From: Candidatus Dojkabacteria bacterium
GTDB lineage: Bacteria; Patescibacteriota; Dojkabacteria; SC72
NCBI GenBank assembly: GCA_035370505.1
Contig: DAOOVU010000001.1
Location: forward strand, 17,109-81,108
Direction: 5' to 3'
Length of the DNA: 64,000 nucleotides
Below are positions 43,716 to 56,600 of the stretch, piece by piece. Position 1 is the first letter of the stretch. Each line of letters opens with the position of its first letter. Position numbers and translations under genes: made by a program. Below the pieces are notes generated by a model, which worked only from the letters and a program-made list of their open reading frames with translations, was not told the origin of the DNA and ran no database searches.

Positions 43716-45524
43716 TTGACAGCATGTTATCATATTTCAATGAGTCTTAAGAAAACCACAGGCAATTTTACCACATTAAAAAAAGTTCTATCATTTATCT
43801 ATTCTAGATACGCAAAATATGCGGTCTCTAGAGATATTTTGTCTGTAATCTCCTCAATTGCAGAAATCTTGTCAATTACAGTATTTGGTAAATTCATAGA
43901 TGCGACGGTAGAAATATTTGCAGAATGGGACTCTTTTGATCTTACGACATACATAGCGTCTGAGTCTTTTGAATATCTTCTCTTCCTACTACTTCTTTGG
44001 ATATTTTCACAGGTATGTTCCCAAGGGAAATCATACCTATATACAGTAATATCCGAAAAGATTACAAAAGATTCTCAACATATGCTGATATCAAAAGTTG
44101 CAGAATCAAATATGGAAGACGTTGAGAAAGAAGATTTTCAAGATATGATTACATATGTTCCAGCACTTTCAATAGGCAAAATAGCCCCAATATATGATTA
44201 TTTATCAGTCATATTATCTAACATTATTCGTTTTGTAGGAGCGGTCATAATCATTTACAAAATAATGGGTGTTTCTGTATTTTTAATTGTACTATTTGTC
44301 ATTCCAGAAGCGGTAATTGTACACTTGAAAAGGAAGGAAATACTCAGATACCAAGATGAATCAGTAGGAAAATTAAAATTCCTAAATTACATACAAAATC
44401 TTTCCCTTACAATTTCAAACTTTCTTGAATTACGAGTAAACAATGTATATTCATATTTGAAAAGAAAATATGAATCAGAATATGATGAATATCAAACAGG
44501 GTATCTTAAAGCACTCTCTAGCTTGTATTCAGATGATACAGCAGCTGGTATTCTTGGACAGTGCATGAAATTTGGATATGTTCTATATGTACTGTCTGTT
44601 TCTATTGCTAAAAAAGTATCCTTTGGTACATTCAAAGCTTTATATGACTATATTGATTCTGCATATGCAGGAATTTTTAATATATTAAACTCAATCTCCC
44701 TTATAGGGTTTAACTTGGGATATGTTGAAAAATTTTTTGCCCTTGTAGAATACAACTGTTTCGGAGATAAATACCATGGAGATAGAAAACTTGGAAGTCA
44801 CACCCCTTTACTTGAATTTAAAAATTTGAGTTTTGCATACCCTGATGATCCAGAAACACTAATTTTGAAGAATTTAAATATTACAATTAGACCAGGAGAA
44901 AAAGTTGCTTTTCTAGGAGGAGATGGATCTGGAAAAAGTACTACTGTAAAGATATTAACTGGGCTGTATGCTGTTGAGATTGGAGATTATCTGTTAGATA
45001 ACATACCTACAAAAGAATTAGACCGAGGAGAATTGAAGAAAAAGCTTTCTGTAATTTTTCAAGACTACATTAACTATAATTTTAGTCTAAAAGAGAATGT
45101 AGTAATATCAGGACAACGAAAAAATGTAAACGAAGAGCTATACAAAAAGGTTACAAAAATAGCTGGAATAGAAGAATTGAAGAAAGTCGCCAATATTGAG
45201 GATAAAAGTATTCTTGGAAAAGTATTTCCATCAGGAAAAGATCTTTCTCCTGGTTATTGGCAGAGACTTGCGATAGCAAGAATGTTATACAGAAATAAAG
45301 ATATATTCATAATGGATGAACCTTTTACATATGTAGATGATATATCCGCAGAAAAAATTTTGAATGGAATATTTGAATTTGCTGGAGAAGATAGAACAAT
45401 TATATATATAACTAGGAGAACAAAGTTTTTGGAAAAATTTGATAGGATATATTACTTTGAAAAAGGTAAGATCATAAGGGAGGAAAAATGGAGTGAAATA
45501 CAAGATAAACTAGGAGTATTGTAA
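43716..45524 (+). CDS. ABC transporter, fused permease/ATP-binding protein (exporter type)
   Basis: N-terminal TM domain; Walker A GGDGSGKST; signature LSPGYWQRL; Walker B IFIMDEP. Confidence 0.75.
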   Translation: MTACYHISMSLKKTTGNFTTLKKVLSFIYSRYAKYAVSRDILSVISSIAEILSITVFGKFIDATVEIFAEWDSFDLTTYIASESFEYLLFLLLLWIFSQVCSQGKSYLYTVISEKITKDSQHMLISKVAESNMEDVEKEDFQDMITYVPALSIGKIAPIYDYLSVILSNIIRFVGAVIIIYKIMGVSVFLIVLFVIPEAVIVHLKRKEILRYQDESVGKLKFLNYIQNLSLTISNFLELRVNNVYSYLKRKYESEYDEYQTGYLKALSSLYSDDTAAGILGQCMKFGYVLYVLSVSIAKKVSFGTFKALYDYIDSAYAGIFNILNSISLIGFNLGYVEKFFALVEYNCFGDKYHGDRKLGSHTPLLEFKNLSFAYPDDPETLILKNLNITIRPGEKVAFLGGDGSGKSTTVKILTGLYAVEIGDYLLDNIPTKELDRGELKKKLSVIFQDYINYNFSLKENVVISGQRKNVNEELYKKVTKIAGIEELKKVANIEDKSILGKVFPSGKDLSPGYWQRLAIARMLYRNKDIFIMDEPFTYVDDISAEKILNGIFEFAGEDRTIIYITRRTKFLEKFDRIYYFEKGKIIREEKWSEIQDKLGVL

Positions 45525-45545: not shown

Positions 45546-46400
45546 ATGCAAATATTAGATGGAAAGAAGCTTTCTAAAAAAATACTAGAGAACATATCTG
45601 AAGAAATTCAAGGGTTAAAAGCGATGAAAAAACAAGTTCCAAGGCTTGATGTGATAATTGCTGGGGACGATTTTGGTAGCATGAAGTATGTTCAAATGAA
45701 GGAGAGAACTGCACAGGAAATAGGTTTAGAGGTGAAGGTTCATCATTTTTCTAGTGAGACGAAAACAGATGAAATCGTAAATTTGATAAATTCGTTGAAT
45801 AAAGATACAGAAGTAACTGGCATTATGGTTCAGCTTCCTCTCCCAAAAAATATTGATGATAATGTTGTTCTTGAAACAATTTCGTCAGAGAAAGATGTAG
45901 ATGGACTTACCGCAGTGAACTTAGGAAGACTTTTTCAAAATAGTAAGTTTGGAATAGCTCCTGCGACACCGCTTGGTATAATGAAATTGCTTAGTGAATA
46001 CAATATTGATATATCTGGAAAAAGAGCAGTAATAATTGGAACTAGTAATATTGTTGGAATTCCTCTAGGTGCTATGTTTCTTAATGAGCATGCGACTGTT
46101 ACTTTATGTAACTCAAAAACAAAAGGTCTAAAAGAAATTTGTAAAGAAGCTGATATATTAGTTAGTGCTACAGGAATTCCCTTGTTGATAAAAGGAGAAT
46201 ATCTTAAGAAGGGCTGTGTAGTTATCGATGTAGGATCAAACAAGCATCCTCGAACTGGGAAGGTTACTGGTGATGTTGATTGGGAATCTGTGAATGGAAT
46301 TCCATCTTATATAACTCCAGTTCCTGGAGGTGTTGGTCCAATGACTATAGCTTGTCTTATGTTAAATTTAATGACCTGCTGGAAAAATGCTAAGAGATGA
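45546..46400 (+). CDS. folD: Bifunctional methylenetetrahydrofolate dehydrogenase/cyclohydrolase
   Basis: MQILDGKKLSKKI..., VQLPLP, GTSNIVGIPLGAM (NADP binding), PVPGGVGPMTIA. Confidence 0.85.
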   Translation: MQILDGKKLSKKILENISEEIQGLKAMKKQVPRLDVIIAGDDFGSMKYVQMKERTAQEIGLEVKVHHFSSETKTDEIVNLINSLNKDTEVTGIMVQLPLPKNIDDNVVLETISSEKDVDGLTAVNLGRLFQNSKFGIAPATPLGIMKLLSEYNIDISGKRAVIIGTSNIVGIPLGAMFLNEHATVTLCNSKTKGLKEICKEADILVSATGIPLLIKGEYLKKGCVVIDVGSNKHPRTGKVTGDVDWESVNGIPSYITPVPGGVGPMTIACLMLNLMTCWKNAKR

Positions 46401-47613
46401 AAAAATAGAGAGTCTGATAGATTTAGAAAAGGAAAGGCAGAAGAGTGGAATAGAGTTAATAGCTTCTGAGAACTATACTTCTGAAGAGGTTTTAAAGTGT
46501 ATGGGCTCGATACTGACGAATAAATATTCGGAAGGTTATCCTGGGAAGAGATATTACAAAGGGAATCAATATGTAGATGAGATAGAGATAGAGGCTATTG
46601 AGAGAGCTAAGCAATTATTTGGTGCTGAGCATGTCAATGTTCAACCGTATTCAGGATGCAGTGCAAACTTAGCAGTACATTTTGCTTTGCTTAATCCTGG
46701 AGATAGAACTCTTGGAATGAGTTTAGATTCGGGTGGTCATTTAAGTCATGGTTTTAAGGTTTCTATAAGTGGAAAATATTTTAATTCTGCAAGTTATGGG
46801 GTAGATGAGAATGGGTATTTAGATTATGAAGAGGTTGAAAAAATAGCAAAGGAGCATCATCCTAAATTGATATGGGCTGGTTTTTCTGCATATTCTAGAA
46901 TCGTTGACTGGAAAAGATTTAAGGATATAGCTGACAGTGTGGGGGCATATTTGTGTGCTGATATATCACATGTTGCAGGTTTGGTTGCTGGAGGTGTTTA
47001 TCCTTCTCCTGTTGGTATAGCCGATGTGGTTACTACGACAACGCACAAGACACTGAGAGGACCACGAGGGGCCATAATCATGTGTAATGAAGAGTTGGCT
47101 TCTTTGATAGACAAGGCAGTGTTTCCAGGTCTTCAAGGAGGTCCTCACAATCATATTACGGCAGGTATGGCGGTTGCGTTTAAAGAGGCTATGTCTGACG
47201 AGTTTAAGGAATATGTTGCACAAGTAGTTAAAAATTCACAAGAATTGTGTAATTCCCTAAAAAGTATGGGTTATGACATTATATCTGGAGGTACTGATAA
47301 TCACATGTTCCTAGTAAATATTATGAGTTCATCAGGTATAGGAGGGGAGGAGGCATCTTCAATTCTTGAGAAAGTGAATATTACGGTTAACAAGAATGCT
47401 ATTCCGTATGATAACAGAAAACCATGGGATCCTTCTGGTATAAGGATAGGAACACCTGCTGTTACTACAAGGGGAATGAAGGAAAAAGATATGACTAAAA
47501 TAGCAGTATTTATAGATACTGCTATAAAGAATAGAGATAATGAAGAAGTTTTGAAAAGCTTAAAATTAGATGTGCAGGATTTTGCATCCAAATTTCCAAT
47601 ACCAGGTATTTAA
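46387..47613 (+). CDS. glyA: Serine hydroxymethyltransferase
   Basis: ELIASENYTS, TTTTHKTLRGPRG (PLP lysine region). Confidence 0.9.
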   Translation: MLRDEKIESLIDLEKERQKSGIELIASENYTSEEVLKCMGSILTNKYSEGYPGKRYYKGNQYVDEIEIEAIERAKQLFGAEHVNVQPYSGCSANLAVHFALLNPGDRTLGMSLDSGGHLSHGFKVSISGKYFNSASYGVDENGYLDYEEVEKIAKEHHPKLIWAGFSAYSRIVDWKRFKDIADSVGAYLCADISHVAGLVAGGVYPSPVGIADVVTTTTHKTLRGPRGAIIMCNEELASLIDKAVFPGLQGGPHNHITAGMAVAFKEAMSDEFKEYVAQVVKNSQELCNSLKSMGYDIISGGTDNHMFLVNIMSSSGIGGEEASSILEKVNITVNKNAIPYDNRKPWDPSGIRIGTPAVTTRGMKEKDMTKIAVFIDTAIKNRDNEEVLKSLKLDVQDFASKFPIPGI

Positions 47614-47629
47614 TTAATATAGTTTAGAT

Positions 47630-49225
47630 ATGAAAATAAGTTTTAGAAAAGATTTAGGAATTGCAACAATAAAATCTGAATCTAACTGGAATAGTATTAA
47701 TATACATACACTTTTGCAAAATGTGGGGGAGAAACGTCCTTCAATAAATGCATATCTTGCAGCAAGATACAGTAGGTCATCTGATTCCATTTTGGATATT
47801 GCTTCGGAGATAATTAAGGATAATAGGGATTCTGCAGAGAGACTCGAGAAGATATTTGCTGGGTATGGTCATAAATCAGTTGGTGATATGGCTGACCTAT
47901 TTGTGTGTCTTGAGAATATTCCAATGTTTTCTGCGATGAAAATATTTTATGCTAATTCAGTTATAGCTGGGCAGGAAAGATCTACAAGATATCAGAATTT
48001 TGAGAATCCAGAATTTATCAAGATACCAAGAGAGATTTGTGAGAATACTGATGTGAGGAAGGAGTATGAAAGGATTATGTTAAAGGAGATTTCTGATTAT
48101 AGAGAACTTCTTAAGCCTACAAGAGAGAGTTTAGGTAATTATTTCTCAATAAATCAGGAGAGTCCTCAGGAAACTTCGGCTTTGAAATCGAGAGCTTTTG
48201 ATACTGCTAGATATCTCTTGCCTTTTGGGCTTGCTACAAGTTCTGCATATTTGATGTCTGCAAGATGTTGGTCTGACGAGATTTCATATTTATCTGCAAG
48301 TGATTCTGTTGTTGATAATGAGATATCAGAATTACTTATTAATTTGCTTGGTGAGAGTGATTTGGATGCGAAGGGGTATATTCGTGAGGCTGATAATTTG
48401 ATAAGGCATACAGATGCTAATTGCAATAGAAAGAATTCAACAGAGGAAATAATTGAATATTTAAGTAAATTTATTTCGAAAGAGCAAATTAGGGATATTG
48501 CAGAGAATGAGAAGGATTCTGTCATAGTGTCGTATTGTCCAGATTGTACTGAAACATTGATTTCCCATTATGAATTATTAATAAATCCCTTAGGGTCTGC
48601 TGAGGAATTAGAGTTTTCTGAAGATGATCAGGAATACATAAGCAATGTATTGTTTGAGAGGCATGATCATAACAACACTATTGGAAATTTAGGACAGTCT
48701 GGTGCTATTAAAGTTTCTGGTTTTGCTTCTTTGGGGACGCTAAAGGATTTGAATAGGCATAGGAGTTTAGAAAGATTTATTCCTTTGCTACATGATGGTG
48801 TAGATATGGATCAGGAGTTAAGGAGAAGGAATGATCAGTGTTTTTATTTGTGTAACTATTTGGATATTCCAAATTTGAGCAGATTAAAGAAGGAGTATCA
48901 GGAGAGGCTAGAGGAGACATACGAGAGGATAAGGGGGTGGAGAAAATATGCAGAAGAATATATGCCAAAGGAAGTAGTTGATGAATTTACTAGGTATCTG
49001 CTTCCTCATGCTCATGCAACTAAGTATGTAATGTATGGGTCTTTTGATGATTTGCAATATGTAATTAATTTGAGGAGTAGGAATGGAGGACATATAGCGT
49101 ATAGAGTGCTAGTCTATGAATGGTTGAGACAGCTTAGTGCGAAGGATCCTATATGGAAAGCATTGCTTAAAAAAGTTATTACTCCAAGGGTTGATGATAA
49201 ATCTCAGTTTATAGATAGGAGTTAA
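47630..49225 (+). CDS. Putative flavin-dependent thymidylate synthase (ThyX-like), unusually long / tandem form
   Basis: First half has GYGHKSVGDMADLF (ThyX GHxSVxE-like) and ...QERSTRY (the ThyX SxRY element) but ANS in place of RHR. Second half has NRHRSLERF (RHR) without SxRY. It sits between glyA and dcd. Confidence 0.4.
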   Translation: MKISFRKDLGIATIKSESNWNSINIHTLLQNVGEKRPSINAYLAARYSRSSDSILDIASEIIKDNRDSAERLEKIFAGYGHKSVGDMADLFVCLENIPMFSAMKIFYANSVIAGQERSTRYQNFENPEFIKIPREICENTDVRKEYERIMLKEISDYRELLKPTRESLGNYFSINQESPQETSALKSRAFDTARYLLPFGLATSSAYLMSARCWSDEISYLSASDSVVDNEISELLINLLGESDLDAKGYIREADNLIRHTDANCNRKNSTEEIIEYLSKFISKEQIRDIAENEKDSVIVSYCPDCTETLISHYELLINPLGSAEELEFSEDDQEYISNVLFERHDHNNTIGNLGQSGAIKVSGFASLGTLKDLNRHRSLERFIPLLHDGVDMDQELRRRNDQCFYLCNYLDIPNLSRLKKEYQERLEETYERIRGWRKYAEEYMPKEVVDEFTRYLLPHAHATKYVMYGSFDDLQYVINLRSRNGGHIAYRVLVYEWLRQLSAKDPIWKALLKKVITPRVDDKSQFIDRS

Positions 49226-49243
49226 TTTTAATTTTGTTTTGAT

Positions 49244-49828
49244 ATGATTCTCTCAGATGTTTCTATTAAGGAGAAGATGAAGAATGGCGAGATTATTATT
49301 GATCCTTTCCATGATGAATTTTTACAGCCTGCATCATATGATCTTCACCTAGATAGATATTTTTTAGTTTTTAATAAAGAAAATGTAGGGGTTATTGATG
49401 TGAAGAATCGTTGTGATAATTTAATGAGGGAGATTGATATTGGGGAAAATGGATTTTTTATAATTCATCCGGGGGAACTTGTTCTTGCTAATGTAAAAGA
49501 GGTAATAGGTGTTGATGATAAGCATGTTGGGCGATTAGAGGGAAAGAGTTCTTTAGGAAGAATTGGTTTGATAGTACATGCCACGGCTGGTTTTCTTGAT
49601 CCTGGGAATAAGTTGAGGATGACGTTAGAGTTATCAAATTTATCGTCTCTTCCCATTAAGGTATATGAGGGAATGGGGATTTCTCAGATAGCTTTTGAAG
49701 AGTTAGACCGTCCATGCAGAAGAGTATATGGTGATAAGGCTTTACATAGTAAATATGTTGGCGATTCAAAGGTAAAAGAAAGCCAAATGTGGAGAAACTT
49801 CAAAGATAGCAAAAACACACTCCATTAG
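49244..49828 (+). CDS. dcd: dCTP deaminase
   Basis: MILSDVSIKEKMKNGEIIIDPF...SYDLHL...GKSSLGRIGLIVHATAGFLDPG; typical dCTP deaminase/dUTPase-fold motifs. Confidence 0.85.
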   Translation: MILSDVSIKEKMKNGEIIIDPFHDEFLQPASYDLHLDRYFLVFNKENVGVIDVKNRCDNLMREIDIGENGFFIIHPGELVLANVKEVIGVDDKHVGRLEGKSSLGRIGLIVHATAGFLDPGNKLRMTLELSNLSSLPIKVYEGMGISQIAFEELDRPCRRVYGDKALHSKYVGDSKVKESQMWRNFKDSKNTLH

Positions 49829-50947
49829 TTACATTGTAGGTGGAACTTGAGGAAGTTCACCTGATGGAGTTTCATCAATTTTGGGCTGTATTGGTTGTCC
49901 AGCAGGTTGTTGAGGAATTTTGCTTATTTCACTATTAATCATATTCTGAAAATCATCTTGAGCTGGTATCTCTCCTGTAGTGTCAGGAATAGTAACTGCT
50001 GGTTCTGTTTGCATTGGCTGTGGTTGTTGTGGAAACTGAGAACTATTATCTGGAGACAAAAAATCGCTCGCAACAGATTGATCTAATGTGGGTTGACCAA
50101 ATGAAAGAGTATTGTTATTTTGAAATGTATTAATATCACTTGCACCGTAATTCTGTGCTTGGACTGGATTCTGAGCGACAGGTTGTACTGGTTGAGTCAT
50201 GTCTATGTTTGAAGAGAAAGGTTGCTGAGTTTGTTCCTGTTGTTGTGTCTGGTATGGATAAGGTTGATTTTCTGTTTGTGTTTGTACAGGGGTTGATGCA
50301 GTCTGTCCAATTGTAAAGTTAGGTTGCACTGAGGATTGCATATCATTGCCAGATTGAGGGATTGTTTGTTGAGTATCCATAGAACTGGGTACAGTAGTCT
50401 GATTAACTATATCAGCAAGTGTAGGTTTCGTTTCTTCAGTTTGGGTCTGAGGAGTTGAAACAGCTTGATTATTTGAATCGTTGTTAGGTGCAGAATTGAT
50501 ATCTTCTGGAGCAGATGTAGGCTGTGGAGTTACCTGTACGAGTTCCTGTGCTCCTCCTTTCTTCTTACTACTTATCAAAATCCCAATTATGCTAACAAGA
50601 AGGATAACTGATCCAACGATTAGTACATATGGAAGATAATCCATGTAACTGCTGGATGTACTTTTCGTAGACTTGCTTGTAGTTGTAGTAGTAGTTGTTG
50701 TTGTAACGGGTGTCGTTGTGGTTTCTGCTGTTGTTCCATCAGTTTGTGTTGTTGCATCAGTAGTTTGAGTAGTAGATTGGGTTGTATTTGCATCGTTTGT
50801 ATTTGATGTTGAGGTATCGTCAGAAGTGGTAGTAAATGATGATTCACTTGATGATACTGATACTCCAGAATCTGTTTGAGCAAAAACAGCCATTGGTAAA
50901 ACACAAACTAAAGATACAATAAAAATATACTTAGATAAATTTTTCAT
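49829..50947 (-). CDS. Bitopic surface protein with Thr-rich mucin-like segment and Gln/Pro-rich low-complexity domain
   Basis: Signal peptide, T-rich run (...TTTPVTTTTTTTTTSKST...), TM (LPYVLIVGSVILLVSIIGILI), then a Q/P/T-rich domain. Confidence 0.5.
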   Translation of the reverse strand: MKNLSKYIFIVSLVCVLPMAVFAQTDSGVSVSSSESSFTTTSDDTSTSNTNDANTTQSTTQTTDATTQTDGTTAETTTTPVTTTTTTTTTSKSTKSTSSSYMDYLPYVLIVGSVILLVSIIGILISSKKKGGAQELVQVTPQPTSAPEDINSAPNNDSNNQAVSTPQTQTEETKPTLADIVNQTTVPSSMDTQQTIPQSGNDMQSSVQPNFTIGQTASTPVQTQTENQPYPYQTQQQEQTQQPFSSNIDMTQPVQPVAQNPVQAQNYGASDINTFQNNNTLSFGQPTLDQSVASDFLSPDNSSQFPQQPQPMQTEPAVTIPDTTGEIPAQDDFQNMINSEISKIPQQPAGQPIQPKIDETPSGELPQVPPTM

Positions 50948-51029: not shown

Positions 51030-52307
51030 ATGTATTTGACTTGGCATCTTACAAAATATACACTTAGTGAGAATATGAATTACCAAGATTTGAACATTAT
51101 TCAAAACGGAATGCAAGGTGAAGCACAGAATGCTGTTGTTGGTGTGTCTGCTATGGATGAAAGTTTGAATGAGATAAAAGAGCTTGAAGAGAAGCTTCTG
51201 AATTCTGGGTGTCCAGATGGATTGAAAGAAGAAACTATGAGGTCAATAGCACGACTTCGAAGGATGGTGAAAATGGGTGGATATAGCAGTGAATTTGAGA
51301 ATGTAAGTAAATATGTTGATTGGGTAGTAAGAATTCCATGGGGAATGATTTCCGCGGATAACTTAGATATTAGCAATGCTAAAACTGTAATGGATCAGAC
51401 TCACTATGGAATGGATGATATAAAGAAGTTAATAATTGATTATCTTGCTGCAATGCAACTCCAAAGTGGGATAGGGATACCATCTAGTCAAGCAAGTATT
51501 CCTACGCAGTTAGGTACTCCTTATTCTCCAGAAGCAGATCATGTATCTGAAATGGTTAAATTGAAAGGGTCTTCAGCAAATGCTCCTGTTTTCCTTTTTG
51601 TTGGATTACAAGGTGTAGGAAAGACTTCTATTGCGAAATCGATAGCTGTTGCGATGAACAGAAAATTTGCAAGGGTGTCTCTTGGTGCAATAGGTGACGT
51701 AAGAACTTTAAGGGGTACTCCAAGATATTCAATAGATGGGGAGCCAGGACAGATTATTAAGGCGCTTATTCGTTGTGGAACTATGAATCCAGTGATCCTT
51801 TTAGATGAAATTGAGAAATCAAGTGGAAATTCAGGTCTACTTAATGATGTTATGGCAACTCTTCTGGAAATTCTTGATCCAGAGCAGAATTCAACATTTA
51901 TAGATCATTACATAGATTATCCTGTTGATTTATCAAAAGTATTTTTTATATGTACTGCGAATAATTTAGGAGGGTTATCTGCTGCACTGCTAGATAGGGT
52001 GGAGGTCATAAGGTTTACTAGTTATTCTGATGCAGAAAAAGAGGTCATTGCTAAGGAATATATTCTTCCTAAGGTTTATGAAAATCTGCATATATCTCCA
52101 GAGTATGTAACAATAGATGAAGATGTTTGGCCCAATTTAATAAGGCCTGTTGGTTTTGATGCAGGTATCAGGCAACTTGAGAGGAATATTGCGACAATGA
52201 TGAGAAGTGCGGCCAGAATGATAGTCGAAGGTCATCCTCTGCCTATTAGTATTACAAAAGATAATTTGAATCAGTTTGTTTTGTCTGATCAAGGGCCTTT
52301 GAGTTAG
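51030..52307 (+). CDS. Lon-type AAA+ ATPase module lacking the S16 protease domain
   Basis: Pre-AAA motif VDWVVRIPWGM...DQTHYGMDDIKKLIIDYLAAMQLQ; Walker A GLQGVGKTS; LLDEIEKS; LDPEQNSTFIDHYIDYPVDLSKVFFICTANN; LDRVEVIRFTSYSDAEKEVIAKEYILPK. The ORF ends where the Lon protease domain would begin. Confidence 0.7.
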   Translation: MYLTWHLTKYTLSENMNYQDLNIIQNGMQGEAQNAVVGVSAMDESLNEIKELEEKLLNSGCPDGLKEETMRSIARLRRMVKMGGYSSEFENVSKYVDWVVRIPWGMISADNLDISNAKTVMDQTHYGMDDIKKLIIDYLAAMQLQSGIGIPSSQASIPTQLGTPYSPEADHVSEMVKLKGSSANAPVFLFVGLQGVGKTSIAKSIAVAMNRKFARVSLGAIGDVRTLRGTPRYSIDGEPGQIIKALIRCGTMNPVILLDEIEKSSGNSGLLNDVMATLLEILDPEQNSTFIDHYIDYPVDLSKVFFICTANNLGGLSAALLDRVEVIRFTSYSDAEKEVIAKEYILPKVYENLHISPEYVTIDEDVWPNLIRPVGFDAGIRQLERNIATMMRSAARMIVEGHPLPISITKDNLNQFVLSDQGPLS

Positions 52308-52573
52308 TATCCCTTAAATGGGTTTTCTAATTTTAGAGCTGATATAGCTGCTTCCATCTGTGGAGATTGTATTCCCCTAGCTATAGCTCTATGCATTCTT
52401 TTTTGTTCTGCCTTGTTAAGGAGATATAGATCACTCTCCTTTTTTTGTTGTGGTATTGAATTTGTATCTATAGCATGTGTTATGAGGTAGTTTTCTTCTT
52501 GAATTGTATTTGTGTTATTGTTCTGCTGATTGTCCATTATCGTCATTATTATTCTCTTCTGGATAGCTTTCAA
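52304..52573 (-). CDS. Small hypothetical protein (89 aa) at the distal end of the VirB4 operon
   Basis: Overlaps the VirB4 3' end by 59 nt; N/Q-rich; no motif. Confidence 0.3.
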   Translation of the reverse strand: MKAIQKRIIMTIMDNQQNNNTNTIQEENYLITHAIDTNSIPQQKKESDLYLLNKAEQKRMHRAIARGIQSPQMEAAISALKLENPFKGY

Positions 52574-55145
52574 CTATTCCCTGAGGAGTTAAATGTCCTT
52601 TCCCTTTTTGTATCTTCATTCTGTCTGATACGACCTGTCCAGAGATTGTGCTGTCTTCGATCTTTTGAAGAAAATCTTTTTGTTGTTGGTATCCTCCTGA
52701 ATTCAATTGCATCTCTTGTTGCTTTAGTCTTTCCTCAAGTTCTTTCTGATATTGTTCTCTTTCCTCTTCTAAGAATGTTTTTTCTGTTTCTTTCTTTTCT
52801 ACTGCATGTTTTATAATTTCTTCTTGTCTTGCAATCTTTCCGTCTTTCATAGGTTTTTGTTGTGTTGGAGTATCAAATACTTGTGCTAATTCCTCCATAG
52901 TTCTTGTGTCAGGCTGTCCCTTTCTTTCAGCAAGTTTTTCAAGGTCTCTTGGATCTGAGGTTATCAACTCATGTTCTGATGTGCTAGAGAGGACTTGGAT
53001 TCCAACATGGTTTGATCCTGCGAAGAATAGTCCTTGTCCTTTATCACAGTTCAAAAGGAAATTTTTTTCTCCATCAGAGAGATTAAAGACTTGCTGTAGT
53101 TTATCTGCGGCGGTAGGGCTTTGCATCATAAGCATTTGCAGAGAGGAGTTGGCAATAATTGCCTTCCCCATGTCATTGTTTAGGAAGTCATTTACATCCT
53201 GTGTAATCGTTGATAGGCCAAGATAGTATTTCCTTGCTCTTTTTGCTATGGAGTACATAAATTTTGCAGAATCTTCAGATTGCATCATATACCATGCCTC
53301 ATCTACTATAAGTATTCTTCTTTTTCTGTCTTTTCTTACTTTTGTCCATATAAAATCGAGCATGAGATACATTGCTAATGGTTTTAGTTCTTCCTGCAGG
53401 TCACGAATACTAAAAACAGTAAGAGGGTTGTCAATTTCAAAATTACTTGCTTCGTTGAATACTCCTGCCCCGCTTCCTATGATGTATCTTTCTAGTCTTC
53501 TTGCCAATCCGTGTGCCTCTTCTTCTGCCATTCCTTTTAATACTTTGTAGAGATCTTCTAAAAGTGGAGGCTGTTTACTTTGTGTAGCTGGATCGTATGT
53601 TATGCCTTTCTCTCTGTAAGTTAGTATGAGAGCTCTGTCAAGTATGGATTCTTCTATATTAGTGAGATTTCTGTATAGTACTTTGAAGAAGCCATGTAGA
53701 GAAAGTAATTTCATTCTTAGCTCGTCATCTCCCTCTTCTGTAGATGATGCCAATTCGAATGGGTTCATTTTATTTCCCTTATCCTGTGAGAATGATATAT
53801 ATGAACCATTAACAGCAGATGCTAGGTTTTCGTATTCTCTTTCTGGGTCAATAATAATTATTTCGGTTCCGAGCATTAAACTTCTCAAAGCTTCTAACTT
53901 TACAAAATAACTTTTTCCAGCTCCTGACTTTGCAAACACAACGGTATTTGCATTCTCAAGTTCAAACCTATCAAAAATCACAAGGCTTTTGTTATGCATA
54001 TTTAATCCGTACATTATTCCATGATCCATAGTTAATTCTGATGTGACGAATGGGAATGTAGTTGCTAAGGATGTCGTATCCATATTTCTTGTAATGTACA
54101 AGTTGTCAATTCCAAGAGGTTGTGTGCTTATAAATCCTTGCTCCTGTTGAAGGGTTGCTGGTTTTGCTGTCACATTTATAGCTGCTAGAGTGGATACTAC
54201 ATTCCTAGATATTTTTTCTAGTTCATCCTTACTTTTTGCATATATTGTAATGTACATCGTGAAATGGAAGAATTTTTCTGTACCTTCAGCTATTGAATCT
54301 TGCAACTGTTGTGCATCGGAGAGAGCAACTTTTAGTGATGGATCTATTACTTTCCTTTCTTCCATTTGTGTATACATTGTTGCTTCCATTTCACCTATTT
54401 TCTTTTTTAATTTCTCAAGTATTGTTTTAGAATCAACTGGGTAATAGAAAGTACTTATTCTGAGGGAATGTTCAAAATTAATAATAGGAGAAAGCCAATT
54501 TGGCCCAACAAATCTAGGATACCCACTTACAAACAGGGTTCTAAAATAGTAATCTCCCATTTGAAGGTGGTTGAAATCGACTTCTAGATCTATTGGAGCA
54601 ATGATATCTTGTAAAGAGATATTAACATCTTCACCAATTATAGATGGAATTACTGAAGAATCTTCTTGAGGAGCTTCTTCTTGTGTTTTATTCTCAGGTG
54701 TTGGAGTCGTGGATTTACTATCCTTGTTTACTTGTGTGGAGATTGTATCAAGAAACTGAAAGAGTGGATTTTTGTTTTGTTTTGCAGGTGTACTAGTTTG
54801 TTGTGTTGTTTGTGAGGAAGTAGTATTTTCCTTTTCGTCCTTGTTTTGTGTCGGCTGTGGAGTAACCTTTATGTTGTTTTTCTTGTTATATTGACCTGCA
54901 AAATAATCAAGAATCTTTAGAAGTGGATTCTTTTTTGGTTTTGTTTTCTCTTCATCAGCAGGGAATGGATCTAAATATTTAGCCCTATTATCATTTGGGT
55001 CTTTTTGCTGTGAAGTTTTTATTGGGTTATTGATAGGATTTTTCTGTAAAGTTGATATTGGGTCTTTATTTAATGTTTTAGTTAAGTCATTCTCAAATGT
55101 TCTGTTGTAATTATTTTTGCTTATGTCTTCCATACTATTCTTCAT
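52515..55145 (-). CDS. virB4: VirB4/TrbE-family type IV secretion ATPase (Gram-positive type) with N-terminal low-complexity extension
   Basis: Walker A VVFAKSGAGKSYFVKL; Walker B ILIVDEAWYMM; a CagE/TrbE-type N-domain (...YYFRTLFVSGYPRFVGPNWL...) preceded by ~170 aa of T/Q/P/N-rich sequence with two copies of a K(K/N)NPL(L/F)x(I/F)LD motif. Confidence 0.85.
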   Translation of the reverse strand: MKNSMEDISKNNYNRTFENDLTKTLNKDPISTLQKNPINNPIKTSQQKDPNDNRAKYLDPFPADEEKTKPKKNPLLKILDYFAGQYNKKNNIKVTPQPTQNKDEKENTTSSQTTQQTSTPAKQNKNPLFQFLDTISTQVNKDSKSTTPTPENKTQEEAPQEDSSVIPSIIGEDVNISLQDIIAPIDLEVDFNHLQMGDYYFRTLFVSGYPRFVGPNWLSPIINFEHSLRISTFYYPVDSKTILEKLKKKIGEMEATMYTQMEERKVIDPSLKVALSDAQQLQDSIAEGTEKFFHFTMYITIYAKSKDELEKISRNVVSTLAAINVTAKPATLQQEQGFISTQPLGIDNLYITRNMDTTSLATTFPFVTSELTMDHGIMYGLNMHNKSLVIFDRFELENANTVVFAKSGAGKSYFVKLEALRSLMLGTEIIIIDPEREYENLASAVNGSYISFSQDKGNKMNPFELASSTEEGDDELRMKLLSLHGFFKVLYRNLTNIEESILDRALILTYREKGITYDPATQSKQPPLLEDLYKVLKGMAEEEAHGLARRLERYIIGSGAGVFNEASNFEIDNPLTVFSIRDLQEELKPLAMYLMLDFIWTKVRKDRKRRILIVDEAWYMMQSEDSAKFMYSIAKRARKYYLGLSTITQDVNDFLNNDMGKAIIANSSLQMLMMQSPTAADKLQQVFNLSDGEKNFLLNCDKGQGLFFAGSNHVGIQVLSSTSEHELITSDPRDLEKLAERKGQPDTRTMEELAQVFDTPTQQKPMKDGKIARQEEIIKHAVEKKETEKTFLEEEREQYQKELEERLKQQEMQLNSGGYQQQKDFLQKIEDSTISGQVVSDRMKIQKGKGHLTPQGIVESYPEENNNDDNGQSAEQ

Positions 55146-55770
55146 CAGGGTTATATATAGTGTAGAACTCAGATATCAACTCTTTGTCTGTTAATTGATG
55201 CCCAAATAATCCCATTCTTCCTAATTGCTTTAGAATATGGTCTCTCTTTGGATACAGAAAGATTTTTGCCTTTTCAATCACTTGAGATGTGTCCATATCT
55301 TCTATTTGTTGCTGCTCTTCTTTGGATTTTTTCTTCTTTAGTGGAGAGACATTTGGAAGTTGACCACCTGGATAGTATGGGATAACTATAAAGAAGCTTT
55401 TATCAAGCACATCATTTTCTACTATCAAATTCTTAACAAACAGTGTATAGATATCAAGCTGTTTTCTTAATCCTTCTGTCATAGGTCTTTCTTTTTGTAT
55501 ATTTAGATAGTCAAGATAGTTAGTAATATCAACTCTCTTTGTCCTTATCAATATTTGAATTTTGAAATTTAGAGAGTTTAATAGGCCTGCAAAAGCATAA
55601 ATTTTATTGTCTTGTTCATAGTCAGCTAAAAGCTCAAAGTTTATGGAAGATGTTTGTAATACCAATGCCACACTCCCATTTTTATTTATAACCAAGTCGT
55701 CGGTTATTTGTTTTATAGCAAGATGGTCTTGTGTTGATGCTGTCGCTCTTGCTCGCGCATTTTTATCCAT
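55135..55770 (-). CDS. VirB4-associated protein resembling the extreme N-terminal segment of Gram-positive VirB4 homologues (possible split VirB4)
   Basis: ...LVINKNGSVALVLQTSSINFELLADYEQDNKIYAFAGLLNSLNFKIQILIRTKRVDITNYLDYL... pattern; ends 11 nt inside the start of the VirB4 ORF. Confidence 0.45.
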   Translation of the reverse strand: MDKNARARATASTQDHLAIKQITDDLVINKNGSVALVLQTSSINFELLADYEQDNKIYAFAGLLNSLNFKIQILIRTKRVDITNYLDYLNIQKERPMTEGLRKQLDIYTLFVKNLIVENDVLDKSFFIVIPYYPGGQLPNVSPLKKKKSKEEQQQIEDMDTSQVIEKAKIFLYPKRDHILKQLGRMGLFGHQLTDKELISEFYTIYNPDEE

Positions 55771-55775
55771 TTTTT

Positions 55776-56600
55776 CTACAAAGCATTAATCTTAATTGGT
55801 AATCTATTATTTATTTTATTCATTATTATTTCAACAGAGGGAAATTCATATTGAGGGTGCTGGAAATCTATTGTGTAAGTTCCTGGCTCCCACTCCTTGT
55901 TAGTTAGGAAATAGCCGTTTGGGCCAGTTTTGCTTGCATAAAGGATTTTTCCGTTGGAATCCCTTAGATATGCTACAACATTTGGGATAGGTTTAAAATC
56001 TTTAGTACAGAGCCAGCAGTTAATATTGCCGGGAAGGTTTTCTAAACCTTTTGTTGAGAATTGATAATTTGCTAGGTTTTCATCGGTAATAATCAGTTTT
56101 GTTGGATCAATTTGTGTGGTCTGCTGAGGAGCAGTCTGCAGAATGTCTAAATTATCTTCAGTTTTTTCATCAGCTTTCTCAGTGGTTATTGTATCTAAAC
56201 CTCCTCCTATTATCTTTTTTGTATTTTCTTTCTGATCTTTATTAATTAATTGACCATCTTTTGTTGGTTTCAGAAGTGGCTTTGTTCTCGCTTCCTTCAT
56301 TTGTTTGTTTAGCCATGTTCTTTGTGTTGGATTATTTATAGCGGTTATATAACTTTGTATGAATTTATCAGCATCTTGTCCATTTATTGGGACAAGTCCA
56401 AGAACAATTCCTATGATTGAGCTGACTATACATATTGGGATACCTAAAATTGCAGGCATAATGTCTGATACCACTAAATACACCATTAGTCCGCCGAATC
56501 CAACTCCTATGGCGAGGTATGTAAACTCTTTTAATGTGAATTTAGTAAATAACTTAAATTCAACATCTAAAACATTTTGCGGTATAGCATGTTGTCTCAT
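55776..56600 (-). CDS. PrgI/VirB3-like two-TM protein with C-terminal beta-rich extracytoplasmic domain
   Basis: N-terminal ...VEFKLFTKFTLKEFTYLAIGVGFGGLMVYLVV... (PrgI-family pattern), a second TM, then a C-terminal domain with PGTYTI-type beta-sandwich signature; first gene of the minus-strand operon. Confidence 0.5.
   Translation of the reverse strand: MRQHAIPQNVLDVEFKLFTKFTLKEFTYLAIGVGFGGLMVYLVVSDIMPAILGIPICIVSSIIGIVLGLVPINGQDADKFIQSYITAINNPTQRTWLNKQMKEARTKPLLKPTKDGQLINKDQKENTKKIIGGGLDTITTEKADEKTEDNLDILQTAPQQTTQIDPTKLIITDENLANYQFSTKGLENLPGNINCWLCTKDFKPIPNVVAYLRDSNGKILYASKTGPNGYFLTNKEWEPGTYTIDFQHPQYEFPSVEIIMNKINNRLPIKINAL

Follow-up and report, generated by a model that had tools for sequence, protein, structure and literature searches.

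A double-length ThyX protein of Candidatus Dojkabacteria with catalytic residues divided between two domains

The gene at positions 47630..49225 of a 64-kb stretch of Candidatus Dojkabacteria DNA (the window, meaning the whole stretch that was analyzed) raises the question of how a ThyX, a flavin-dependent thymidylate synthase, could be built from a double-length chain in which the RHR-x7-S(-x-RY) signature is found in neither single domain and exists only split across the halves. The product has two ThyX domains, the active-site residues are partitioned between them throughout a large family of double-length homologs, and the gene is tied by its genomic surroundings to the metabolism of deoxythymidine monophosphate (dTMP). 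With a probability of roughly 0.65, the protein is read here as a working flavin-dependent thymidylate synthase that arose when ThyX was duplicated in tandem and fused long ago and that would act as a dimer with shared sites.

Two ThyX domains in one chain

The gene and its two domains are placed as follows.

47630..49225, plus strand: double-length thyX (open reading frame; Pfam Thy1; AlphaFold2 model; Foldseek)
47630..48415, plus strand: N-terminal ThyX domain, residues 1-262 (Thy1 found in this part alone; hhalign to TM0449 colinear over 1-219)
48440..49222, plus strand: C-terminal ThyX domain, residues 271-531 (Thy1 found in this part alone; hhalign; own AlphaFold2 model; Foldseek)

The frame runs from ATG to stop and encodes 531 amino acids, with a predicted chain mass of 61 kDa. 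The Pfam family Thy1 (PF02511, gathering score 24.8 bits) matches the whole protein in two stretches (E 1.4e-24, 87.4 bits), and each part also passes when scanned alone, with 56.1 bits for residues 1-270 and 36.0 bits for residues 271-531. Comparison by hhalign with the canonical references, the Thermotoga maritima TM0449 and Mycobacterium tuberculosis ThyX sequences (100% identical to the chains in the PDB), gives a probability of 92.1% for the N-terminal half (E 6e-7) and 92.9% for the C-terminal half (E 4e-7), and under relaxed settings both halves are colinear with nearly the whole 220-residue canonical enzyme. The two halves also show a weak but detectable kinship to each other by hhalign (83% probability, E 8e-6); BLASTP between them finds no significant similarity (E 0.05), so the duplication is visible by profile-profile comparison only.

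The predicted structures agree with the profiles. The full-length AlphaFold2 model has a mean predicted local distance difference test score (pLDDT) of 84.6 and a predicted TM-score (pTM) of 0.88, and every top Foldseek match in the PDB is a ThyX. The C-terminal half modeled alone (pLDDT 88.1, pTM 0.84) has 91 matches in the PDB at E<=1e-3, the best 50 of which are all ThyX or PolB, and it matches ThyX structures at E 1.4e-5 with a target-normalized TM-score (TMt) of up to 0.62. A search of the PDB by sequence and family profile returned only weak matches (E 0.04-0.5), to the C-terminal helices of canonical ThyX, and none of the solved structures in the PDB belongs to the double-length family. 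On the strength of profiles and models, each half is thus assigned as a ThyX domain with a predicted ThyX fold.

Division of the active-site residues

The residues discussed below are numbered for the present protein and compared with those of T. maritima ThyX (Tm) and M. tuberculosis ThyX (Mtb); canonical positions without a prefix are those of Tm. The substrate that they handle is deoxyuridine monophosphate (dUMP).

47867..47881, plus strand: GHKSV, residues 80-84; H81 corresponds to Tm H53, and S83 to Tm T55 and Mtb S71
47951..47959, plus strand: A108-N109-S110, at the position of canonical R78-H79-R80 by alignment; columns unconserved in the family
47972..47992, plus strand: QERSTRY, residues 115-121; E116, S118, R120, and Y121 correspond to E86, S88, R90, and Y91
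48209..48265, plus strand: R194 (Tm R147) to R212 (Tm R165, Mtb R190) by alignment; 97% and 89% conserved
48752..48778, plus strand: NRHRSLERF, residues 375-383; R376-H377-R378 correspond to R78-H79-R80 by alignment
49067..49105, plus strand: NLRSRNGGHIAYR, residues 480-492; R482 corresponds to Tm R174 and Mtb R199, the dUMP-activating Arg
49205..49222, plus strand: QFIDRS, the C-terminal tail, residues 526-531; F527 87% and R530 99% conserved across the family

Three subunits contribute to each site of canonical ThyX. Subunit A brings, in Mtb numbering, RHR and R199 (Tm R174); the S71 and R190 of subunit B (Tm T55 and R165) contact flavin adenine dinucleotide (FAD), with S71 reaching the FAD phosphate; and from subunit C come S105, R107, Y108, and the backbone of Q103 (Tm S88, R90, Y91, and E86) (PMC6514825). 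R174 activates dUMP, and S88, R90, and Y91 assist the methylene transfer (PMC8316439). The RHR motif, in the role of subunit A, stands for FAD and dUMP contacts, and the QERSTRY loop, in the role of subunit C, for dUMP binding and catalysis.

In the N-terminal half, the block aligned opposite RHR is Y107-S110, so that RHR is lost, and L221 occupies the position of R174, where the Arg is lost as well. In the C-terminal half, the Ser88 loop is gone through a six-residue deletion right after RHR, R382-F383 stands opposite R90-Y91 as an Arg-Phe remnant of RY, D473 stands at the position of R165, the equivalent of R147 is gone too, and K or R is found at the equivalent of R74. The same division recurs in a family alignment of the query with 131 diverse double-length homologs (132 sequences, 23-100% identity). 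The equivalents of H53 (99%), S/T55 (99%), E86 (80%), S88 (100%), R90 (99%), Y91 (Y or F, 100%), R147 (97%), and R165 (89%) are conserved in the N-terminal half, where the RHR columns are unconserved and the equivalent of R174 is L, F, or M. Conversely, the C-terminal half conserves RHR (99/88/95%), R482 at the position of R174 (99%) with its surroundings G486 (95%), G487 (92%), Y491 (95%), and R492 (90%), and an Asp (D373) at the position of Q75 (98%), while the S88 loop is lost and the equivalents of R147 and R165 are unconserved. The active-site set of RHR, R174, S/T55, R165, E86, S88, R90, and Y91 is therefore all present, 80-100% conserved, and spread over both domains, and the complementary loss of motifs holds across the whole double-length family. 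The QFIDRS tail, which closes the chain, is without a counterpart in canonical ThyX.

A sequence-only reading of this locus had recorded GHKSV, QERSTRY, and ANS in the place of RHR in the first half of a 531-amino-acid frame, all of which are present and have their register confirmed by the alignment. It had also described the second half as carrying NRHRSLERF without SxRY, which is right for the Ser and has to be corrected for RY, since the Arg-Phe remnant is kept. Its proposal of a tandem ThyX duplication is upheld by profiles and predicted structures, which give ThyX matches for both halves, and by the hhalign kinship between them, and the complementary loss of motifs that it suggested from one protein is conserved over the 132 aligned double-length sequences. 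The contrast that it drew between RHR in one half and SxRY in the other is real and yet incomplete, because the split follows three subunit roles: as judged from the alignment, the C-terminal half keeps the A-role residues and the N-terminal half keeps both the B-role and the C-role residues.

This distribution of roles would allow complete sites to be assembled in only one way. If the sites of a D2 tetramer are written by role as (A,B,C), (B,A,D), (C,D,A), and (D,C,B), an enumeration reasoned out here finds that only the placement of C-terminal domains at A and D yields complete sites, and then exactly two. The retention of both the B and the C roles by one domain matches this sole placement. 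On these grounds a homodimer with two complete sites is predicted, which would rebuild a ThyX-like pseudo-tetramer with the C-terminal domains at A and D and the N-terminal domains at B and C. Each complete site would consist of one C-terminal domain and both N-terminal domains, with the C-terminal domain supplying the RHR and R174 equivalents (A role) and the N-terminal domains supplying the B-role residues (S/T55 and R165) and the C-role residues (E86, S88, R90, and Y91). None of the three residue sets would be present at the remaining two sites, and there would be one FAD per chain and two FAD per dimer. In the second kind of site, all three role sets have degenerated jointly, as the loss of whole sites predicts. 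The reaction would be dUMP + methylenetetrahydrofolate (CH2-THF) + NADPH -> dTMP + tetrahydrofolate (THF). The homodimer, the count of two sites out of four, one FAD per chain, and the enzymatic activity itself are inferred.

Genomic context, distribution, and rival explanations

The neighboring genes bear on the substrate.

43716-45524, plus strand: ABC transporter (Pfam/NCBIfam)
45546..46400, plus strand: folD, methylene-THF dehydrogenase/cyclohydrolase (PF00763 and PF02882); conserved upstream in related loci
46387..47613, plus strand: glyA, serine hydroxymethyltransferase, which makes CH2-THF (PF00464, E 8e-162)
49244..49828, plus strand: dcd, dCTP deaminase, which supplies dUTP/dUMP (PF22769; TIGR02274, 173.9 bits against a cut-off of 92.8)

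Together with thyX, these genes form a tight co-directional block in which folD and glyA overlap by 14 nt, 16 nt separate glyA from thyX, and dcd begins 18 nt past the thyX stop. A scan for promoters and terminators gave nothing above shuffled expectation and no predicted terminator between folD and dcd, and no recognizable Shine-Dalgarno sequence lies upstream of thyX (47594-47629) or dcd (49226-49243), where the 16-18 nt spacers are AT-rich. In this arrangement folD and glyA would supply and recycle one-carbon folate, and dcd would supply the deoxyuridine nucleotide. ThyX regenerates THF, not dihydrofolate, so that the glyA, folD, and thyX trio would form a self-contained one-carbon loop.

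The sequence-only reading had taken the order folD, glyA, thyX, dcd as support for thymidylate synthesis, and this is strengthened by the Pfam and NCBIfam assignments of the neighbors and by the dTMP genes found near distant relatives. Among 79 related loci from the Candidate Phyla Radiation (CPR), each taken with about 12 kb around the gene, the order is intact in 45; of the other 34, many are short or truncated where a contig stops. Nucleotide-gene neighbors persist in relatives at only 23-30% identity. For example, in Daviesbacteria (GCA_028687915.1) pyrG, a kinase gene, dcd, and dut are followed by a fusion of 758 amino acids, tmk::thyXX, a Rosetta-stone link of the family to dTMP metabolism. 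Similarly, a contig of Woesebacteria carries dcd and, further on, thyXX, a nucleoside deoxyribosyltransferase (NDT) gene, tmk, tdk, glyA, and folD, and another CPR contig carries a dNK-like kinase gene and dcd followed by thyXX. The same reading had named thyA or another thyX elsewhere as a check, and the result was negative in what was covered: a Pfam scan of 46 of the 49 window open reading frames of at least 150 amino acids found no ThyA and no second ThyX, and tblastn with Escherichia coli ThyA and canonical ThyX, at a limit of E<=10, gave no match in the 64-kb window, and in the 79 related loci no match fell below E 0.01. A role in dTMP synthesis is supported, the assignment as a dTMP synthase resting on genomic context.

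The nearest homologs are from Candidatus Dojkabacteria (WS6, within the CPR), with metagenomic proteins at 100% identity and a protein of a metagenome-assembled Dojkabacteria genome at 87%. There are 292 close homologs, and nearly all of the 120 listed are exactly 531 amino acids long and come from independent assemblies. A HMMER scan of 1.8 billion cluster representatives gave 1833 matches, 1098 of them at E<1e-10 and 198 at <1e-30, and the best 150 of the 1833 are almost all 480-640 amino acids long and align end to end. The architecture is therefore not unique, and the present protein belongs as an ordinary member to a large subfamily of more than 1000 protein clusters, whose traits it shows: a length of about 490-640 amino acids, two Thy1 domains, an N-terminal half with GQxxS(T)RY and without RHR, a C-terminal half with (D)xNRHR and LRxRxGGHIxYR, and a C-terminal FxDR(S). 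Named bacterial members are found in Dojkabacteria, Microgenomates, Pacebacteria, Woesebacteria, and Daviesbacteria, in cultured Ktedonobacteria (four Dictyobacter species), and in one cyanobacterium of the Leptolyngbyaceae. In addition, tblastn detected full-length homologs in the Microcystis phage Ma-LMM01 and its relatives, a Microcoleus phage, and the jumbo phage Tunturi_5, and on plasmids of Parabacteroides and Paenibacillus; a scan of viral contigs with clade-specific patterns gave no match. The motif partition is common to all of the phage and plasmid homologs and is weakened in the two plasmid proteins. Members that stand apart by architecture or host are listed by locus.

L081:8001-10277: tmk::thyXX protein of Daviesbacteria (P0290), PF02223 fused to the N-terminus of a double ThyX
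L083:8001-9572: homolog of Leptolyngbyaceae cyanobacterium JSC-12
L088:3992-5467: Ma-LMM01 gp020, double ThyX homolog of a cultured cyanophage
L089:2881-4500: homolog on Parabacteroides distasonis plasmid NZ_OY725790.1, in the 20-22% identity range, with GDDS for GHxS
L090:2938-4494: Tunturi_5 gp50, double ThyX homolog of a 309-kb jumbo phage of Acidobacteria
L091:2845-4431: homolog on a Paenibacillus urinalis plasmid, in the 20-22% identity range, with RHN for RHR
L092:3001-4512: Microcoleus phage homolog, also of a cultured cyanophage, annotated as a hypothetical protein

In Tunturi_5 the gene adjoins those for a dUTPase and a dCMP deaminase. Both plasmids are large. The copy of P. distasonis is followed by genes for one ATP-binding and one HIT-domain protein, and the plasmid-borne ThyX-like proteins may act outside housekeeping dTMP synthesis. 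The JSC-12 homolog sits among genes for FtsK/SpoIIIE, ParA-like, M23 peptidase, and XisA-like recombinase proteins and many hypothetical genes, surroundings that look like an integrated mobile element or prophage.

Three other explanations of the double-length protein have to be weighed. That two adjacent thyX genes were joined by an error of sequencing or assembly, or that the motifs match by chance, can practically be dismissed: only the unusual length speaks for it, both halves are significant Thy1 domains, the 1098 representatives at E<1e-10 are mostly 480-640 amino acids long with full-length matches, and an artefactual fusion is rejected because close homologs of 531 amino acids recur in independent assemblies (120 of 292 listed). 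A half-length representative (P0176), considered as a stand-alone half gene, lies on a contig of 976 bp and is a contig-end fragment. It is unlikely, too, that no sites are shared, with one half serving as a structural pseudo-enzyme scaffold or all four pseudo-sites working through non-canonical residues. Such an arrangement could draw on the Arg-Phe of the C-terminal half at the position of R90-Y91, on its K/R at the equivalent of R74, and on the extra Arg of the C-terminal tail (R530, 99% conserved), but neither half alone holds the full canonical set. Moreover, RHR and the R174 equivalent are 88-99% conserved in the C-terminal half only, and S88, R90, Y91, S/T55, and R165 are 89-100% conserved in the N-terminal half only, and the joint degeneration of the three role sets of the second type of site is what whole-site loss predicts.

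A change of chemistry on the same fold appears less likely still. In that case the flavin enzyme, though ThyX-like, would use a different pyrimidine nucleotide as substrate and would not be the dTMP synthase of the cell; it might be, for example, a C5-methylase or hydroxymethylase of UMP or dCMP, PolB-like or base-modifying as in phages. PolB (4p5a/4p5b) is indeed among the structural matches, TIGR02170 stays below its cut-off, and homologs occur in phages, in a mobile-element-like cyanobacterial region, on a Parabacteroides plasmid, and in Dictyobacter with unrelated neighbors. However, the PolB structures rank under true ThyX, the residues that contact or activate dUMP (S88, R90, Y91, R147, R174, and RHR) are all conserved in trans, CPR genomes place the gene near dcd, dut, tmk, tdk, glyA, and folD, one of them even fusing it to tmk, and neither the window nor the 79 loci showed another thymidylate synthase.

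Several observations nevertheless weigh against a working dTMP synthase with two shared sites per dimer. The score for the NCBIfam thyX equivalog TIGR02170 is 45 bits against a cut-off of 87.9. In the C-terminal half, R or K is retained at the equivalent of R90 (93%) and F or Y at that of Y91 (78%), and a His near the equivalent of H53 is partly conserved (~50%), so that the sites taken as dead may keep some function. R147 is placed in the subunit with the C role on an assumption from the T. maritima structure, where we take it to lie. Homologs also occur in organisms expected to have ThyA, such as P. distasonis (the COG table gives ThyA in 53 of 55 genomes of the Bacteroides group and ThyX in none) and large-genome Dictyobacter, where they sit in non-nucleotide contexts, so that not every member need be a housekeeping enzyme.

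The remainder of the window is a low-GC (~33%) housekeeping region with genes for an rRNA dimethylase, hrcA-grpE-dnaK, groEL, lepA, ftsK, murJ, and aminoacyl-tRNA synthetases. Close to the block lie the following genes.

49829-50947, minus strand: Ser/Thr/Gln/Pro-rich protein of 372 amino acids, with a signal-like segment at its N-terminus and a single hydrophobic stretch; convergent with dcd, its end abutting the dcd stop codon; found in 1 of the 79 related loci
51030-52307, plus strand: 425-amino-acid Lon-like protein that combines an AAA+ module with a Lon lid domain and has no protease domain; conserved in most Dojkabacteria loci, a short way downstream of dcd
52515-56600, minus strand: TraG/VirB4-like P-loop ATPase (876 amino acids) near a PrgI-family protein, with one unassigned open reading frame of 211 amino acids between them

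The last of these is a type IV secretion/conjugation-like cluster of the monoderm type that has been reported in Patescibacteria.

Significance and comparison with known systems

ThyX is an antibiotic target whose mechanism relies on sites shared by three identical subunits, so that mutagenesis of a single role is impossible in the homotetramer. If the dimer proposed here is right, A-role and B/C-role residues could be mutated independently in one chain, which would make the protein a tool for dissecting three-subunit catalysis, and the family would show how an oligomeric enzyme loses half of its sites after duplication. It is suggested tentatively, with somewhat less than an even chance of being right, that the family is a natural, obligatorily asymmetric ThyX with roles hard-wired onto two domains and half the usual sites per ThyX domain, serving in place of the homotetramer as the thymidylate synthase of much of the CPR, some Chloroflexota and cyanobacteria, and several large phages. 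The subfamily appears to be a mechanistically interesting variant undescribed in the literature searched, where no account of duplication or complementary residue loss was found for fused, tandem, or pseudo-dimeric ThyX. Its novelty is tempered by its abundance in databases, where many members are already annotated as FAD-dependent thymidylate synthase or ThyX. Others, many of them in Woesebacteria, Daviesbacteria, Dictyobacter, and Ktedonobacteraceae, are labeled hypothetical proteins, and because of these labels and the failed equivalog cut-off, dTMP synthesis may be under-called in metabolic reconstructions of the CPR.

A first point of reference is canonical homotetrameric ThyX (PF02511; TM0449, PDB 1O26; Mtb, PDB 3GWC), whose fold is common to both halves, whose catalytic residues RHR, R174, S/T55, R165, E86, S88, R90, Y91, and R147 are also found here, and whose association with the folate cycle and dUMP supply is likewise seen. 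The canonical enzyme has one domain of ~220-250 amino acids and forms a tetramer with four sites, whereas the present protein has two diverged domains in 531 amino acids and a predicted dimer with two sites, and only the double-length protein ends in a conserved FxDRS.

Among double-length proteins, Ma-LMM01 gp020 (YP_851034, 491 amino acids) has the same full-length architecture (29% identity at 99% coverage) and matches the full-length model in Foldseek at E 5.5e-30, with TM-scores of 0.76 normalized to the query (TMq) and 0.82 to the target (TMt). Its residues are partitioned alike, with GQERSTRY and no RHR in the N-terminal half and NRHR and RSR..GGHINYR in the C-terminal half. The homologs of Ma-LMM01, MaMV, the Microcoleus phage, and Tunturi_5 differ in being viral and 30-40 residues shorter. 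The gp020 gene has been described as a middle gene co-expressed with those for ribonucleotide reductase and dUTPase and termed a "ThyX homolog" (PMC5780444), and no comment on its duplication was found.

The ThyX of Chlamydia trachomatis was expressed and active in assays (PMC3498832). No Chlamydia protein is among the homolog matches listed for the present family. The C. trachomatis protein (CT632) is presumably of ~529 amino acids, in which case it probably has the same fused architecture, and it was reportedly characterized enzymatically by Griffin and colleagues in 2005, in J Biol Chem. If it belongs to the family, as it may, the ability of this class to make dTMP has already been validated by experiment, which would temper the novelty further.

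PolB (PDB 4P5A/4P5B), a UMP/dUMP methylase of polyoxin biosynthesis, shares the ThyX fold and is among the structural matches; it has one domain, forms a homotetramer, and is encoded in an antibiotic cluster, whereas the present protein has two domains and lies in a dTMP/folate operon, with folD, glyA, dcd, an ABC transporter gene, and housekeeping genes as neighbors in place of a nucleoside-antibiotic cluster. An analogy outside ThyX is the monomeric dUTPase of herpesviruses, which is double-length after duplication of a subunit with inter-subunit sites and likewise shows complementary loss of motifs, and which differs in its unrelated fold and reaction, in its trimeric parent, and in having one active site in the fused form.

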